From Candidatus Bipolaricaulia bacterium (GTDB lineage Bacteria > Bipolaricaulota > Bipolaricaulia > JBHIAT01): 16,523 nucleotides of DNA. The notes under the pieces were generated by a model. It did not search any database. It was given only the letters and a program-made list of their open reading frames with translations, and had not been told where the DNA came from. Below, in pieces: positions 12,731 through 16,523 of this stretch. The position numbers were made by a program, and so were the translations under genes. Location of the stretch: the NCBI GenBank assembly GCA_046758705.1, contig JBHIAT010000074.1:1-16523 (forward strand), read 5' to 3'. Within the stretch, counting starts at the first letter, position 1, and each line of letters opens with the position of its first letter.

Positions 12731-14047
12731 TCATGCCTCGCGCTCCAGAATCGAGATCGTTACGTAGGTCCCGGTCCCGGCGTGGCTGTGGATCGCGCCT
12801 CGTTCGGCATCGGAGATCTGGACGGTGGCGTCGCCGCCGTAGTGTTGTCCGATCGTCCCCTGGAGCTGCCACAGTGCGAACACCGCCTGCATCAGCCCCG
12901 TCGCTCCCACCGGATGGCCGCAGGCGAGCAGCCCGCCGGACGGGTTGACCGGGATCGTTCCCGGGCTTTTCAGATTGAGCCCGTAATCGATGTCGGTCAA
13001 GAACGGATGGCCCGCATCGACGAACTTTCCACCTTCACCATACCTGCACAGCCCCATATCTTCATAGGTTTGGATCTCCGAGGAGGTATAAGCGTCGTGA
13101 AGTTCGATGAAGTCGAGCGCTTCAACTGGATCGGTGATCCCGGCGTTTCGGTACGCCTCGATCGCGGCCATCCGCCCGGCGCGGAACGAGTGAACACCTG
13201 GATATTTTAGGTTCTCATAGCCGGACTCCGTCTCGTGGGGCAGGAGCGGCACACCCCCGTGAGGACGGTCGGCCATGCGCATCGCGTCCGTTCCGCGACC
13301 GATCCCGGCCACCTTGACTCGAGGGATCTCGGTCCCGGCCGCCTTCTCGATCTTTCGCAGGCCATCTGCACTTGCCAACAGGACCGCCGCCGCCCCATCT
13401 GACATCACACAGATATCGTAACGGGTGAGCGGCCAGGAAACCATCGGGGACTCCCGGACCGCCTCGATCGTGAGCCGCTCGCGCTTCTGGGCGTAGGGAT
13501 TGTATAGGGCGTTGATATGGTTCTTCACCGAAACTTTGGCCAGCTGCTCGACGGTGGTGCCGAACTCGTGCATATGGCGGACGACCATCATCGCGTAGTA
13601 CCCGGTATAGAAGCCGCCGACCGGGTAGTCGAAGTCCTGATCGGAGGCCATCGCGATGAACTCATTCCCCTTCCAGGTCTCGACATGGGACATCTTCTCG
13701 AAGCCGTAGGCGAGGCAGATATCCATATAACCGGAGGCGACAGCTTTGTAGGCTTCTTGAAAGCAGATCCCGCCGGTGGCCCCGCCGCCCTCCACCCGGT
13801 GGCTCGGCTTGGGGACGAGGCCCAGATAATCCTGAACCATGATCCCGGCCATCAGCTGCCGCGCAAAATGGTCGGAGAAGTACGAGGCGACCGTCCCGTC
13901 GATGAACTCGAACATCTGTTTGTGATCGAGGTCAAGGTCAGTGAGGATGTCATCGTAAGCCTCCTTGACCATTGGCTGGAACGTCACATCCGGCCGCGCT
14001 TTGGTAAACTTGCTTACACCGCCGCTGACGACGTAGACATCACGCAT
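12731..14047 (-). CDS. Thiolase-superfamily protein (SCP-x / archaeal type) lacking the nucleophile Cys
   Basis: VKNHINALYNPYAQ, SDGAAAV, ELHDAY, VNPSGGLLACGHPVGATG; RBS AAGGAGG; VEGGGATGG where VExACASG is canonical. Confidence 0.93.
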   Translation of the reverse strand: MRDVYVVSGGVSKFTKARPDVTFQPMVKEAYDDILTDLDLDHKQMFEFIDGTVASYFSDHFARQLMAGIMVQDYLGLVPKPSHRVEGGGATGGICFQEAYKAVASGYMDICLAYGFEKMSHVETWKGNEFIAMASDQDFDYPVGGFYTGYYAMMVVRHMHEFGTTVEQLAKVSVKNHINALYNPYAQKRERLTIEAVRESPMVSWPLTRYDICVMSDGAAAVLLASADGLRKIEKAAGTEIPRVKVAGIGRGTDAMRMADRPHGGVPLLPHETESGYENLKYPGVHSFRAGRMAAIEAYRNAGITDPVEALDFIELHDAYTSSEIQTYEDMGLCRYGEGGKFVDAGHPFLTDIDYGLNLKSPGTIPVNPSGGLLACGHPVGATGLMQAVFALWQLQGTIGQHYGGDATVQISDAERGAIHSHAGTGTYVTISILEREA

Positions 14048-14070
14048 AAGACCTCCTTTTTACCGTTTTT

Positions 14071-14100
14071 ATGGTACCCTAGGACACGCGCATCGTTCAA
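14071..14100 (-). promoter_or_regulatory. Possible sigma70 promoter for the thiolase-DUF35 operon
   Basis: Minus strand TTGAAC-18 nt-TACCAT upstream of the AAGGAGG RBS. Confidence 0.45.
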
Positions 14101-14159
14101 CCAGGGTGGCCAACCGTGGGGATTATCTGACCTTCATATCTAGAGAGAGCCTATAGGGG

Positions 14160-14165
14160 TATAAT
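14160..14165 (+). promoter_or_regulatory. Possible -10 box for the STAND-WD40 gene
   Basis: Perfect TATAAT 32 bp upstream of ATG 14198; no convincing -35 at standard spacing. Confidence 0.4.
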
Positions 14166-14197
14166 GGTACTGGATTCACAGTGATATATTTTCGGTT

Positions 14198-16523
14198 ATG
14201 AACGAGAGCAGAGAGTACCACGGGGGTATCGAGCCTGGTCCCGGTCCTGACCAGGCGATCTACGAAGGCGAAGCTCCTTACCGAGGTCTGGAGTTCTTTG
14301 ATGTGCAGCACGCTCCATTCTTCTTCGGGCGGGAGGCTTTGACCGATCAGTTGCTGAACGAACTACGTCTTTCGACCGGCTCGGGACAGGATAACCGCTT
14401 CCTGAGCATCATCGGTCCCTCAGGCAGCGGCAAGTCGTCGCTCGCCCGCGCTGGACTGGTTGCCGCACTGAGACACGGTGAGATCGAGGGCAGTAAAGAC
14501 TGGCTCATCGCCATCTGTCGGCCAGATGCCGACCCGCTGGAGAGCCTGGTCATGGCTCTCTCTAAAGCGACCGGCGCTGGACAAACCTCATCGGCCGTCC
14601 GTGATCTGATAGAAGCCCTGCGTAGTAACGAACGCACGCTGCATATCATAACTCGCCTCGCGCTGCGCGATGCCCCACAAGATCGGCGGCTAGTCCTGTT
14701 GGTTGACCAGTTTGAGGAACTATTCACCTTGTGCGACGATGAGCACCTCCGTCAGGCCCTGATAAACAATCTGCTTTATGCCGCTAGCATCGCAGATGGC
14801 CGAACGGTGGTGCTGCTCACCCTGGGCGCCGACTTTTACGACGAGTGTGCGACCTATCCTGTGTTGGCTGCTGCTCTATCTGATCACCAAATACTCGTGG
14901 GCCCAATGACGGACGACGAATTGCGGCGCGCTATCGAACGGCCGGCGCAACTGGTCGAGTGCGAGTTCGAAACTGGACTGGTGGAACGCATCCTTTACGA
15001 TGCAGGAGAGAAGTCAGGTAATCTGTCTCCCCTGGAGCTCGCCCTGACGGAACTGTGGACACGGCGGCAGGGCAGGCTGTTGACCCACGCTGCTTACGAA
15101 GACATCGGGGAGATAGCGGGGGTGATTGCCCAGCGGGCCGAGGAGGAATCTGCGAAATTCACGCCGGAGCAGAGAGAGGTCGCCGAGCCAGAGGCGCAGC
15201 CACAGCGCGAACCGGAACCGGCTCAAGCCTTGGCCGAAGAGCCGAAGCAAACGGCCGAGACAGAGCGTCAGCAGGCAGAAGAGCAGCAGCGACAGACTGA
15301 GGAGCCCGGGGTTGCTCGACGCCTGCGCCGAATGGCTCTGATAGTGGTGGTTCTGCTGGTGGTGGGGTTTGGAGCATTTGCGTTTATACAATACCAAGAG
15401 GCGATAGAGCAGCGTCAGGCGGCGGTAAAGCAGCTTCAAGAGACCGAAGTGCAGCGCCAGCTTGCCGAAAAGCAGCGCCGGATCGCCGAGGAGCAGCGCC
15501 AAGAGGCCGAACAGCAGCGCCAGCTTGCCCTCGCCCGTCAGTTATCAGCCCAGGCCGAGTCTGTGCGGGTCCAGCATGCCGCTTTGCTGCCGCGCAGTGT
15601 ACTCCTGGCCGTGGAGTCGTTGCGCCGCACCCCTACGCTGAAGGGTAACCAGGTTCTGAGCCACAACCTATCATTGATCCCACCCCCCAGGATGACGCAC
15701 GAAGACTCGGTGGGGGCGGTGGCATTCAGCCCCGACGAGCGCCGGGTGGTCTCAGGAGGCGGGACCACCGCCCGCGTGTGGGAGACAGAAACCGGCCGCG
15801 AGCTCTCCCACATGACTCACCAAGACACCGTGTGGGCGGTGGCGTTCAGCCGCGACGGGCGCTGGGTTGCCTCAGGAGGTGGGACCACCGCCCGCGTGTG
15901 GGGGGCGGAAACCGGGCAGGAACTCTCCCGTTTGACGCACGAAGGCTTGGTGCGGGTGGTGGCGTTCAGCCCCGACGGGCGCTGGGTCGCCTCAGGAGGC
16001 GGGACCACCGCCCGCGTGTGGGAGACAGAAACCGGCCGCGAGATCGCTCGCATGAGGCACCGGGACTGGGTGTATGCGGTGGCGTTCAGCCCTGATGGGC
16101 GTTGGATCGCCTCGGGAAGCTGGGATAACACCGCCCGCGTGTGGGAGATAGAAACCGGCCGCGAGCTCTCCCGTATGTTGCACGAAGACTCGGTGGGAGC
16201 GGTGGCGTTCAGCCCCGACGGACGCTGGGTCGTCTCGGGAAGCTGGGATGGCACCGCCCGCGTGTGGGAGGCAGAGACCGGCCGCGAGGTCGCCCACATG
16301 ACCCACCAAGACGAGGTGAAGGCGGTGGCGTTTAGCCCCGACGGACGCTGGGTCGTCTCGGGAAGCTGGGATGGCACCGCCCGCGTGTGGGAGGCAGAGA
16401 CCGGCCGTGAGCTCTCCCGCATGACCCACGGAGATCGGGTAGAGACAGTGGCGTTCAGCCCCGACGGACGCTGGGTCGCCTCAGGAGGCGGGACCACCGC
16501 CCGCGTGTGGGAGACAGAAACCG
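14198..16523 (+). CDS. NLR-like STAND NTPase (nSTAND1-type) + TM helix + WD40 repeat protein, more than 775 aa, 3' end beyond the window
   Basis: Manually translated with no stop from ATG 14198 to the window end. PYRGLEFF...FFFGRE, Walker A GPSGSGKS (14414-14437), Walker B LVLLVDQFEELFT (from 14690), LRRAIERPA, TM MALIVVVLLVVGFGAFAFI (15332-15388), coiled coil, ARQLSAQA, then WD40 repeats. Not in the ORF track because it has no stop in the window. Confidence 0.93.
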   Translation, partial: MNESREYHGGIEPGPGPDQAIYEGEAPYRGLEFFDVQHAPFFFGREALTDQLLNELRLSTGSGQDNRFLSIIGPSGSGKSSLARAGLVAALRHGEIEGSKDWLIAICRPDADPLESLVMALSKATGAGQTSSAVRDLIEALRSNERTLHIITRLALRDAPQDRRLVLLVDQFEELFTLCDDEHLRQALINNLLYAASIADGRTVVLLTLGADFYDECATYPVLAAALSDHQILVGPMTDDELRRAIERPAQLVECEFETGLVERILYDAGEKSGNLSPLELALTELWTRRQGRLLTHAAYEDIGEIAGVIAQRAEEESAKFTPEQREVAEPEAQPQREPEPAQALAEEPKQTAETERQQAEEQQRQTEEPGVARRLRRMALIVVVLLVVGFGAFAFIQYQEAIEQRQAAVKQLQETEVQRQLAEKQRRIAEEQRQEAEQQRQLALARQLSAQAESVRVQHAALLPRSVLLAVESLRRTPTLKGNQVLSHNLSLIPPPRMTHEDSVGAVAFSPDERRVVSGGGTTARVWETETGRELSHMTHQDTVWAVAFSRDGRWVASGGGTTARVWGAETGQELSRLTHEGLVRVVAFSPDGRWVASGGGTTARVWETETGREIARMRHRDWVYAVAFSPDGRWIASGSWDNTARVWEIETGRELSRMLHEDSVGAVAFSPDGRWVVSGSWDGTARVWEAETGREVAHMTHQDEVKAVAFSPDGRWVVSGSWDGTARVWEAETGRELSRMTHGDRVETVAFSPDGRWVASGGGTTARVWETET
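15692..16523 (+). repeat. Tandem coding repeat array, at least 7 WD40 units of 120 or 123 bp
   Basis: Units start at 15692, 15812, 15932 (120 bp, SGGGTT), 16052, 16175, 16298 (123 bp, SGSWD[NG]T) and 16421 (SGGGTT type, truncated). 74 nt are identical between 16211-16284 and 16334-16407. Confidence 0.96.

Follow-up and report, generated by a model that had tools for sequence, protein, structure and literature searches.

A damaged, mosaic member of the nSTAND1-WD40 receptors in a Bipolaricaulia genome

The window analysed here is a stretch of 16,523 nt, the whole of contig C74 (JBHIAT010000074.1) of a metagenome-assembled genome of a Candidatus Bipolaricaulia bacterium (3.70 Mb in 319 contigs, estimated 93.9% complete). 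At its 3' end lies a gene encoding a STAND ATPase, a predicted membrane helix and a WD40 array, i.e., the layout of the nSTAND1-WD40 receptors, whose ATPase family is named among predicted bacterial conflict systems (Kaur et al., eLife 2021, PMC8195603). We find that the window gene is a damaged, mosaic member of this known kind: its N-terminal effector, winged helix and helical arm are missing, otherwise invariant ATPase residues are changed, and its front and back resemble different lineages.

An Open Reading Frame Cut by the Contig End

The extent of the gene and the features at its start are as follows.

14198..16522, forward strand: open reading frame (ORF) of 775 codons (775 amino acids) from an ATG, stop-free and open at its 3' end (from a list of ORFs with open ends and their translations)
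14160..14165, forward strand: TATAAT, a -10-like hexamer that contains the in-frame TAA at 14162-14164, 32 nt 5' of the ATG (read from the sequence)

The original prediction had reported a stop-free frame of more than 775 codons that the ORF track did not list, and this frame is real. It was overlooked by a track that requires a stop because none occurs before the contig ends within the WD40 repeats. The contig end is itself explained by the fragmentation of the assembly at such repeats, since the Logan contigs of all four runs considered (X1-X4) break up inside the WD40 array. When the genome was searched by tblastn with a paralogue's C-terminal cap and the last 126 residues, no contig continuing the window gene was found. 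On another contig (C89:410-1384), WD40 blades that begin near the contig start and run into a diverged cap are only 46% identical to the window blades; this is probably where a different receptor gene ends, and not the lost end of the window gene.

At the 5' end, the in-frame TAA at 14162-14164 was read from the sequence, and no alternative ATG, GTG or TTG occurs between it and the ATG at 14198. As predicted, this leaves no space for an effector, there being at most 26 residues ahead of the PYRGL motif. Scans of 13950-14350 detected no full sigma-70 site (two-hexamer promoter scan) and no terminator. The ATG has no Shine-Dalgarno-like motif before it, as had been noted earlier, but we rejected this as a mark of a non-native start because the motif is likewise absent from both full-length paralogues and from roughly half of the window's other genes.

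Domain Layout of the Encoded Protein

The predicted order of STAND ATPase, RRLRR plus hydrophobic helix, coiled coil (here called a helical stalk) and WD40 array was borne out by Pfam, by hydropathy and by AlphaFold2 (AF2).

14276..15193, forward strand: nSTAND1 NTPase, nucleotide-binding domain and helical lid only, residues 27-332 (Pfam; AF2 predicted local distance difference test score, pLDDT, >90 over most of residues 41-320)
14414..14440, forward strand: Walker A, GPSGSGKSS, intact, with the invariant columns G73 and S75-S81 kept
14696..14719, forward strand: Walker B, LLVDQFEE, intact, with the invariant D170, E173 and E174 kept
15317..15388, forward strand: RRLRR plus a 19-residue hydrophobic helix (residues 374-397), predicted single span with the N-terminus inside (hydrophobicity, flanking charge)
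15389..15691, forward strand: helical E/Q/R-rich stalk, then a conserved linker to the propeller (AF2 helix 370-469; Tandem Repeats Finder, TRF; blastn)
15692..16523, forward strand: WD40 array with blades of 120-123 nt, running off the contig (TRF, 6.9 copies of a 123-nt unit)

The Pfam nSTAND1 family (PF20703, curated cut-off 27.1 bits) matched residues 27-332 with E=2.2e-84 and 284.7 bits (283.2 bits in the genome search), and WD40 matched in 7 stretches with E=8.5e-68. RRLRR occupies residues 374-378 and is followed by the helix MALIVVVLLVVGFGAFAFI (379-397; Kyte-Doolittle mean of 2.96 over 19 residues). In the stalk, a 21-nt (7-residue) tandem repeat found by TRF (15444-15529, 4.1 copies) encodes heptads of the helix. 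The AF2 run covered residues 1-470 with a 71-row alignment and gave a mean pLDDT of 83.0 and a predicted template modelling score (pTM) of 0.71. The model comprises the nucleotide-binding domain, the helical lid (239-319), a low-confidence stretch (334-351) and one continuous helix (370-469), although by block the pLDDT is <55 for residues 331-400.

Pfam detected no N-terminal effector or adaptor domain in the window protein. A Foldseek search of the PDB returned general AAA+/ORC-Cdc6 matches only, and a sequence search of the PDB gave P-loop matches to RecA only, none of the solved structures being a sequence relative. PADLOC-DB 2.0 gave no specific defence-system match, the only hits being HEAT-ARM_XIII (on the WD40 part) and weak P-loop matches to mad3 and mad8.

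The Missing N-Terminal Head

What remains ahead of the ATPase is a single short element.

14198..14275, forward strand: 26-residue N-terminus, a remnant of the TIR end and the TIR-to-ATPase linker (alignment to TIR-nSTAND1 homologues; tblastn)

The nearest 119 proteins in a collection of 5.8 billion clusters are 49-67% identical to the window protein over the ATPase. A TIR domain was detected in 115 of them (phmmer, E<=1e-5, with the Pfam-verified TIR of the genome's own paralogue as query), and in 107 of the 119 PYRGL lies at residue 153 or later. The linker between TIR and ATPase in these homologues has the consensus AFHRLVCGIRGxEPGPGPGQAxYEGxCPYRGL. The window N-terminus, MNESREYH--GGIEPGPGPDQAIYEGEAPYRGL, aligns to it with a short gap, and the Cys that usually precedes PYRGL is replaced by Ala. 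The suggestion that GIEPGPGP is a leftover effector-ATPase linker is thus upheld by alignment to the nearest homologues. The remaining four homologues, in which no TIR was detected, each start at a different place within the TIR end or linker; they may be miscalled or truncated records, and they define no conserved headless architecture. Close homologues do not, then, all start headless at one point, and "decapitated" fits better than "ordinary architecture." As judged from these alignments, the ancestry of the window gene itself is TIR-headed.

No displaced copy of the missing parts was found in the genome by tblastn. Four TIR heads gave no close copy, only distinct TIRs on contig C5 and the window linker itself (14225-14275; 17 residues, 65-76% identity), and two winged-helix/arm pieces likewise gave no displaced copy. 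The first 371 residues had 0 matches in 40 genomes of the same class (84-99% complete).

Wider relatives were collected as 80 loci from representative genomes (best identity 56%), with N-terminal parts obtained for 74. These N-termini carry HTH_31, protein kinase, BTAD/Trans_reg_C, TIR, EAD1/EAD7, caspase or cyclase domains, or have no Pfam match, and in 5 of the 74 (L064, L067, L070, L074 and L086) there is an N-terminus of only 33-67 residues with no Pfam domain. Headless nSTAND1 proteins therefore exist but are rare and scattered.

Mosaic of Two Lineages

Identity was counted per 30-residue window against four clade members and the TIR paralogue on contig C5. Over residues 27-266, the window protein shares 12-27 of 30 residues (40-90%) with the clade members, and at least 19 of 30 (63%) in seven of the eight windows, the exception being 117-146 (12-16 of 30, 40-53%). 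Over the same residues it shares 6-19 of 30 (20-63%) with the TIR paralogue. Across residues 267-326 the relationship is reversed, with 18 and 26 of 30 identical to the paralogue (60-87%) versus 11-16 of 30 (37-53%) to the clade members, so that the switch falls at about residue 267. The second-lineage part begins with the following patch.

14966..15172, forward strand: patch with 82.6% DNA identity to the C5 TIR paralogue, where the second-lineage part starts (blastn)

From 15464 to the end, DNA identity to the same paralogue is 73-75%, covering stalk, linker and blades (blastn). By these comparisons, the gene joins the ATPase front of one nSTAND1 lineage to the back of another.

A mosaic gene in a metagenome-assembled genome of 319 contigs, whose assembly breaks at WD40 repeats, could in principle be an artefact, either because two genes were joined in a chimeric contig or because a repeat was assembled wrongly. 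A Logan contig of 2619 nt from run X1 (possibly the source sample) spans 13500-15780 with 0 differences; contigs from X2 cover 14053-14972 and 14984-15518, also with 0 differences, and one from X3 covers 14075-15061 with 1 difference. All four runs come from one study, which limits their independence. The other lineage in the genome is only 73-83% identical in DNA, i.e., too distant for co-assembly. We consider an artefact highly improbable: the gene structure is not an assembly chimera, because lineages this far apart would not be assembled together, and because contigs of the independent samples X2 and X3 both reproduce the start region, those of X2 the internal junction as well. A closely related strain, differing at scattered single bases over 13942-14521, is present in run X4. 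In the ATPase part its variants comprise two non-synonymous (A90T and A105T) and two synonymous changes, too few for judging selection.

Loss of the Winged Helix and Changed ATPase Residues

The original prediction had overlooked this mosaic origin, and with it a deletion of the winged helix and arm and the changes R210G, P277S and G254E in the ATPase.

15176..15316, forward strand: E/Q/P-rich low-complexity stretch (residues 327-373, about 47 residues) in place of the winged helix and helical arm (alignment; AF2)
14825..14827, forward strand: Gly210 instead of Arg (LTLRADF) at the end of the strand after Walker B (Arg in 121 of 121 relatives; AF2 strand 203-210)
15017..15034, forward strand: GNLSPL instead of GxLPLL, i.e., P277S (Pro in 121 of 121 relatives) and L278P (Leu in 117 of 121)

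In the alignment there is one large gap after ...AKFTPEQRE, and the block CRRIFLRLTQPGEGTEDTKRR...VEVAHEALIRxW...LYRGARLAxAxEW... is missing from the window protein. An AF2 model of the paralogue (residues 1-700, pLDDT 85.7) shows this same block as a winged-helix domain (442-529) and a helical arm (531-582); in the window model, the lid (239-319) is followed by a disordered stretch and then the membrane helix, with no winged helix. Consistent with this, only positions 1-282 of the 379 in the PF20703 profile are matched by the window protein, leaving about 100 positions (283-379) unmatched, so that the window protein does not carry the full-length domain (profile 1-379, including the winged-helix part); both paralogues match positions 1-378. 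The membrane helix starts 352 residues past PYRGL in the window protein versus 446-565 in all 66 of the other single-span proteins.

We take Arg210, from its position, to occupy the sensor-1 place of AAA+/STAND ATPases, and GxLPLL presumably corresponds to the GLPL/GxP motif of NB-ARC. Other changed conserved columns include G254E (Gly in 120 of 121 relatives), W51Q and G110D. Of 113 columns conserved in at least 93% of the 121 relatives, the window protein deviates from or lacks 17, and 10 of these belong to the ATPase core. In a leave-one-out comparison over the core, the window protein was off at 10 of 100 conserved columns versus a median of 2, ranking top among clade members; the two divergent paralogues, from another sub-lineage, deviate more.

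The WD40 Sensor Array

Among themselves, the blades share 78-85% DNA identity (blastn). The seven of them vary mainly at columns 4, 6 and 8 of 41 (4, 6 and 6 different residues, respectively), most other columns being invariant. The variable columns lie in the H-x-D-x-V-x stretch, which we assume to face the top of the propeller; WD40 arrays of fungal NLRs have the same pattern of variation. Blades 1 and 5 carry an identical trio of variable residues (E, S, G), and such sharing hints at recent exchange between blades.

Four of the seven blades (1, 2, 3 and 7; 15746-16510) read SGGGTTARVW rather than SGSWDGTARVW, are 3 nt shorter and have no Asp. These were considered as a sign of decay, and rejected as such: relatives have blades without Asp too, including SGGG forms (a crude pattern counted 229 among 1425 blade ends).

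Genomic Context and Possible Partners

Upstream of the window gene, a thiolase-like gene on the opposite strand ends 150 nt away, and the rest of the contig holds genes of housekeeping type (OB-fold DUF35-like, amidohydrolase, RidA-like, ABC transporter, DnaG and RpoD, names read from the translations), with no transposase evident on it. Elsewhere in the genome, contig C5:21476-47201 (loci L001, L002 and L089-L093) is a conflict-system island that includes both full-length relatives and stand-alone effectors, as follows.

C5:21476-24820: trypsin-nSTAND1-transmembrane helix (TM)-WD40
C5:30493-31284: stand-alone trypsin-like protein
C5:35101-37929 (L093:5104-7929, reverse strand): TIR-arm-TM-WD40, no ATPase, 942 aa
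C5:37960-38892: 310-aa protein ending in TIR
C5:38908-40671: SLOG(LSDAT_prok)-SLATT
C5:40696-42969: RyR-TPR-S-adenylate/guanylate cyclase
C5:42966-47201: TIR-nSTAND1-TM-WD40 paralogue, 1411 aa

The 942-aa TIR protein keeps the helical arm, an RR-flanked membrane helix, the WD40 array and the two-cysteine cap described below, a mirror image of the losses of the window gene. The genome-wide look for paralogues and stand-alone effectors that the original prediction had proposed thus yielded TIR- and trypsin-headed full-length copies as well as a stand-alone TIR and a stand-alone trypsin. Possible trans partners are therefore present in the genome; none is linked to the window gene.

These partners bear on the idea that the window gene encodes a working sensor-only or helper receptor, whose WD40 array would bind ligand and which would signal in trans by hetero-oligomerization, via its ATPase or its helix and stalk, to a headed paralogue or a stand-alone effector. 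The genome supplies TIR- and trypsin-headed receptors, a TIR-arm-TM-WD40 protein and free TIR and trypsin, and the stalk, linker and blades of the window gene are about 73-75% identical in DNA to those of the TIR paralogue. The intact Walker A and B motifs, the open frame with all changes in frame, the hypervariable blade positions and the short-headed nSTAND1 proteins found elsewhere (5 of 74) also fit such a receptor. However, the gene sits among housekeeping neighbours on a separate contig with no adjoining effector, and it has lost the winged helix and changed the invariant Arg, both presumably needed for regulated oligomerization. No orthologue of the same structure occurs in the 5.8 billion clustered proteins, where the next best match is 67% identical, and the short-headed relatives are cut at differing points and share no conserved architecture. 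On balance, we think a working receptor of this kind unlikely. Of the two options originally offered, "sensor-only in trans or decapitated," the second is supported, with TIR in 115 of 119 homologues and the TIR-less ones cut variously, and the first is weakened by the loss of the winged helix and the changed invariant residues.

The Membrane Helix as a Family Trait

Spans were scored, by hydrophobicity and flanking charge only, in a set of 122 proteins comprising the window protein, the 119 homologues and the 2 paralogues. After the ATPase there is one span in 67, several in 9 and none in 46; among the span-less proteins 22 are long enough to show one, and many of those have cytoplasmic histidine-kinase modules. 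The span lies between the nSTAND1 arm and WD40, TPR or FGE-sulfatase sensors, and the majority of the members that have repeat sensors possess a single one. The idea that the membrane helix is special to the window gene did not survive, as it is a common feature of the family, including both full-length paralogues.

In the 67 single-span proteins, the 15 residues before the helix contain a mean of 5.5 Lys plus Arg, versus 2.5 after it. The N-terminal flank has the higher count in 64 of the 67 and the lower in 2, the same bias is seen in both paralogues, and the window protein has 5 versus 2. Because of this excess on the N-terminal flank, the positive-inside rule places the repeats outside, and the ATPase is predicted to lie inside and the repeats outside the cell for both the window protein and the family. 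The earlier positive-inside reading, with the propeller outside the cytoplasm, therefore holds.

A C-terminal cap with two cysteines (C...RNLT..EW..Y.GD..PY...C) is shared by 69 of the 118 proteins related to the C-terminal half and by three WD40 genes on contig C5, and it would fit a disulfide formed outside the cytoplasm. Together, span and cap suggest that the sensors of this family may lie outside the cytoplasm. For Planctomycetota proteins with a kinase, a membrane span and WD40 or TPR repeats, the repeats are predicted to be periplasmic (PMC11032199), and for one NACHT protein C-type-lectin sensors in the periplasm were predicted in a PNAS paper (PMC10907252). The passages of the literature that were covered contain no explicit mention of a membrane span in nSTAND1 proteins, or of sensing outside the cell by them, although one may still be published, and a literature search for periplasmic or transmembrane-helix STAND NTPases returned nothing relevant.

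With repeats predicted outside the cell, the window protein might instead be a surface-exposed WD40 scaffold or adhesin-like protein with a role outside immunity, the vestigial P-loop domain serving as an anchor. The predicted single span (N-terminus in, C-terminus out) and the housekeeping neighbourhood agree with this, and other bacteria commonly have kinase-TM-WD40/TPR proteins whose repeats are predicted to be periplasmic (PMC11032199). Against it, the receptor context persists in all relatives found, nothing independent points to a new role, and the protein still has 300 well-conserved ATPase residues. We regard a scaffold as distinctly improbable.

Discussion

The reading that we prefer, with a probability of about 0.55, is that the window gene is a decapitated, internally rearranged TIR-nSTAND1-TM-WD40 paralogue, either a relic or a non-autonomous remnant or modulator. 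The comparisons above show that it descends from a TIR-headed nSTAND1 lineage, of whose TIR-ATPase linker it retains just the final portion, and that its 3' region, starting at about residue 267, derives from another lineage, to which the TIR paralogue of this genome is related. They also show that the winged helix and helical arm have been deleted and that two otherwise invariant ATPase residues are changed. In STAND proteins, the winged helix and the sensor-1 Arg are required for the ADP-locked off state and for ATP-driven oligomerization. Because the winged helix, the sensor-1 Arg and the effector are all missing, the protein could not work autonomously as an NLR-like switch. If expressed, it would span the membrane once, with a crippled P-loop domain in the cytoplasm and a helical stalk and WD40 propeller(s) outside. 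Most likely it would be a relic drifting to loss, and at most a ligand-binding decoy or a modulator of full-length relatives.

Several observations weigh against a decayed gene. The frame is open over 775 codons and all rearrangements are in frame (a 4-residue linker gap, an internal replacement and blades shorter by 3 nt), pointing either to selection for an intact product or to decay that is very recent. Both Walker motifs are intact, and the count of 10 of 100 deviating columns is a slight outlier only, two clade members being off at 8 of 100. The focusing of blade variation on three surface columns is what would be expected of a sensor under diversifying selection, although this variation could have been inherited from the parent gene. 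Finally, the 3' end of the gene is missing at the contig end, where a later frameshift or stop would be invisible.

The comparison with known systems places the window protein within the nSTAND1 family, to which it is alike in an ATPase core that fits PF20703 and in the presence of a WD40 sensor array. It is unlike the family, whose heads are TIR, trypsin, caspase, kinase, HTH, BTAD, EAD or cyclase domains, in being headless, in having no winged helix or first arm helix, and in its changed invariant Arg and Pro. Compared with the tripartite NLR-like layout, it has the C-terminal repeat sensor, with the array cut by the contig end, but no N-terminal effector. Compared with the STAND switch, it keeps Walker A and B but not the sensor-1-position Arg or the GxLPLL lid motif. 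With the TIR paralogue on contig C5, it shares the order of ATPase, RRxRR plus membrane helix, E/Q-rich stalk and linker, a near-identical blade type, and 73-83% DNA identity where aligned from 14966. In contrast, TIR, winged helix, arm and invariant residues are all present in the paralogue, whose ATPase shares only 20-63% identity per 30-residue window with residues 27-266 of the window protein.

Truncated plant and animal NLRs (TN, NL, etc.) also have one canonical part absent, and some are modulators or partners of full-length receptors. They have no homology to the window protein beyond the STAND fold. The Ser/Thr kinase-TM-WD40/TPR/FGE-sulfatase receptors of Planctomycetota (PMC11032199) likewise have their signalling domain in the cytoplasm, a single membrane span and long WD40 arrays that are predicted to lie outside the cytoplasm. 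They differ in having a kinase instead of a STAND ATPase, and their topology was predicted with DeepTMHMM rather than with hydrophobicity and flanking charge, as here.

A more far-reaching idea, which we find very doubtful, is that the window gene encodes a "disarmed" transmembrane NLR-like receptor, reduced to ATPase core, membrane helix, stalk and a diversified propeller, a decoy or dominant-negative that would tune the full-length TIR and trypsin receptors via mixed oligomers. The family as a whole would then combine a Toll-like layout with an NLR switch, having WD40, TPR or FGE sensors facing outward and the STAND domain with TIR or protease inside.

On its own, the window gene carries little weight; as the decapitated paralogue that we favour, it would show that bacterial NLR-like genes are shuffled, beheaded and left to decay, as in plants and fungi. 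The four modular variants in one genome (TIR-ATPase-TM-WD40, trypsin-ATPase-TM-WD40, TIR-TM-WD40 and headless ATPase-TM-WD40) form a natural set for asking which parts are required. If the predicted topology is true, the STAND receptors of this family would sense outside the cell, and not in the cytoplasm.

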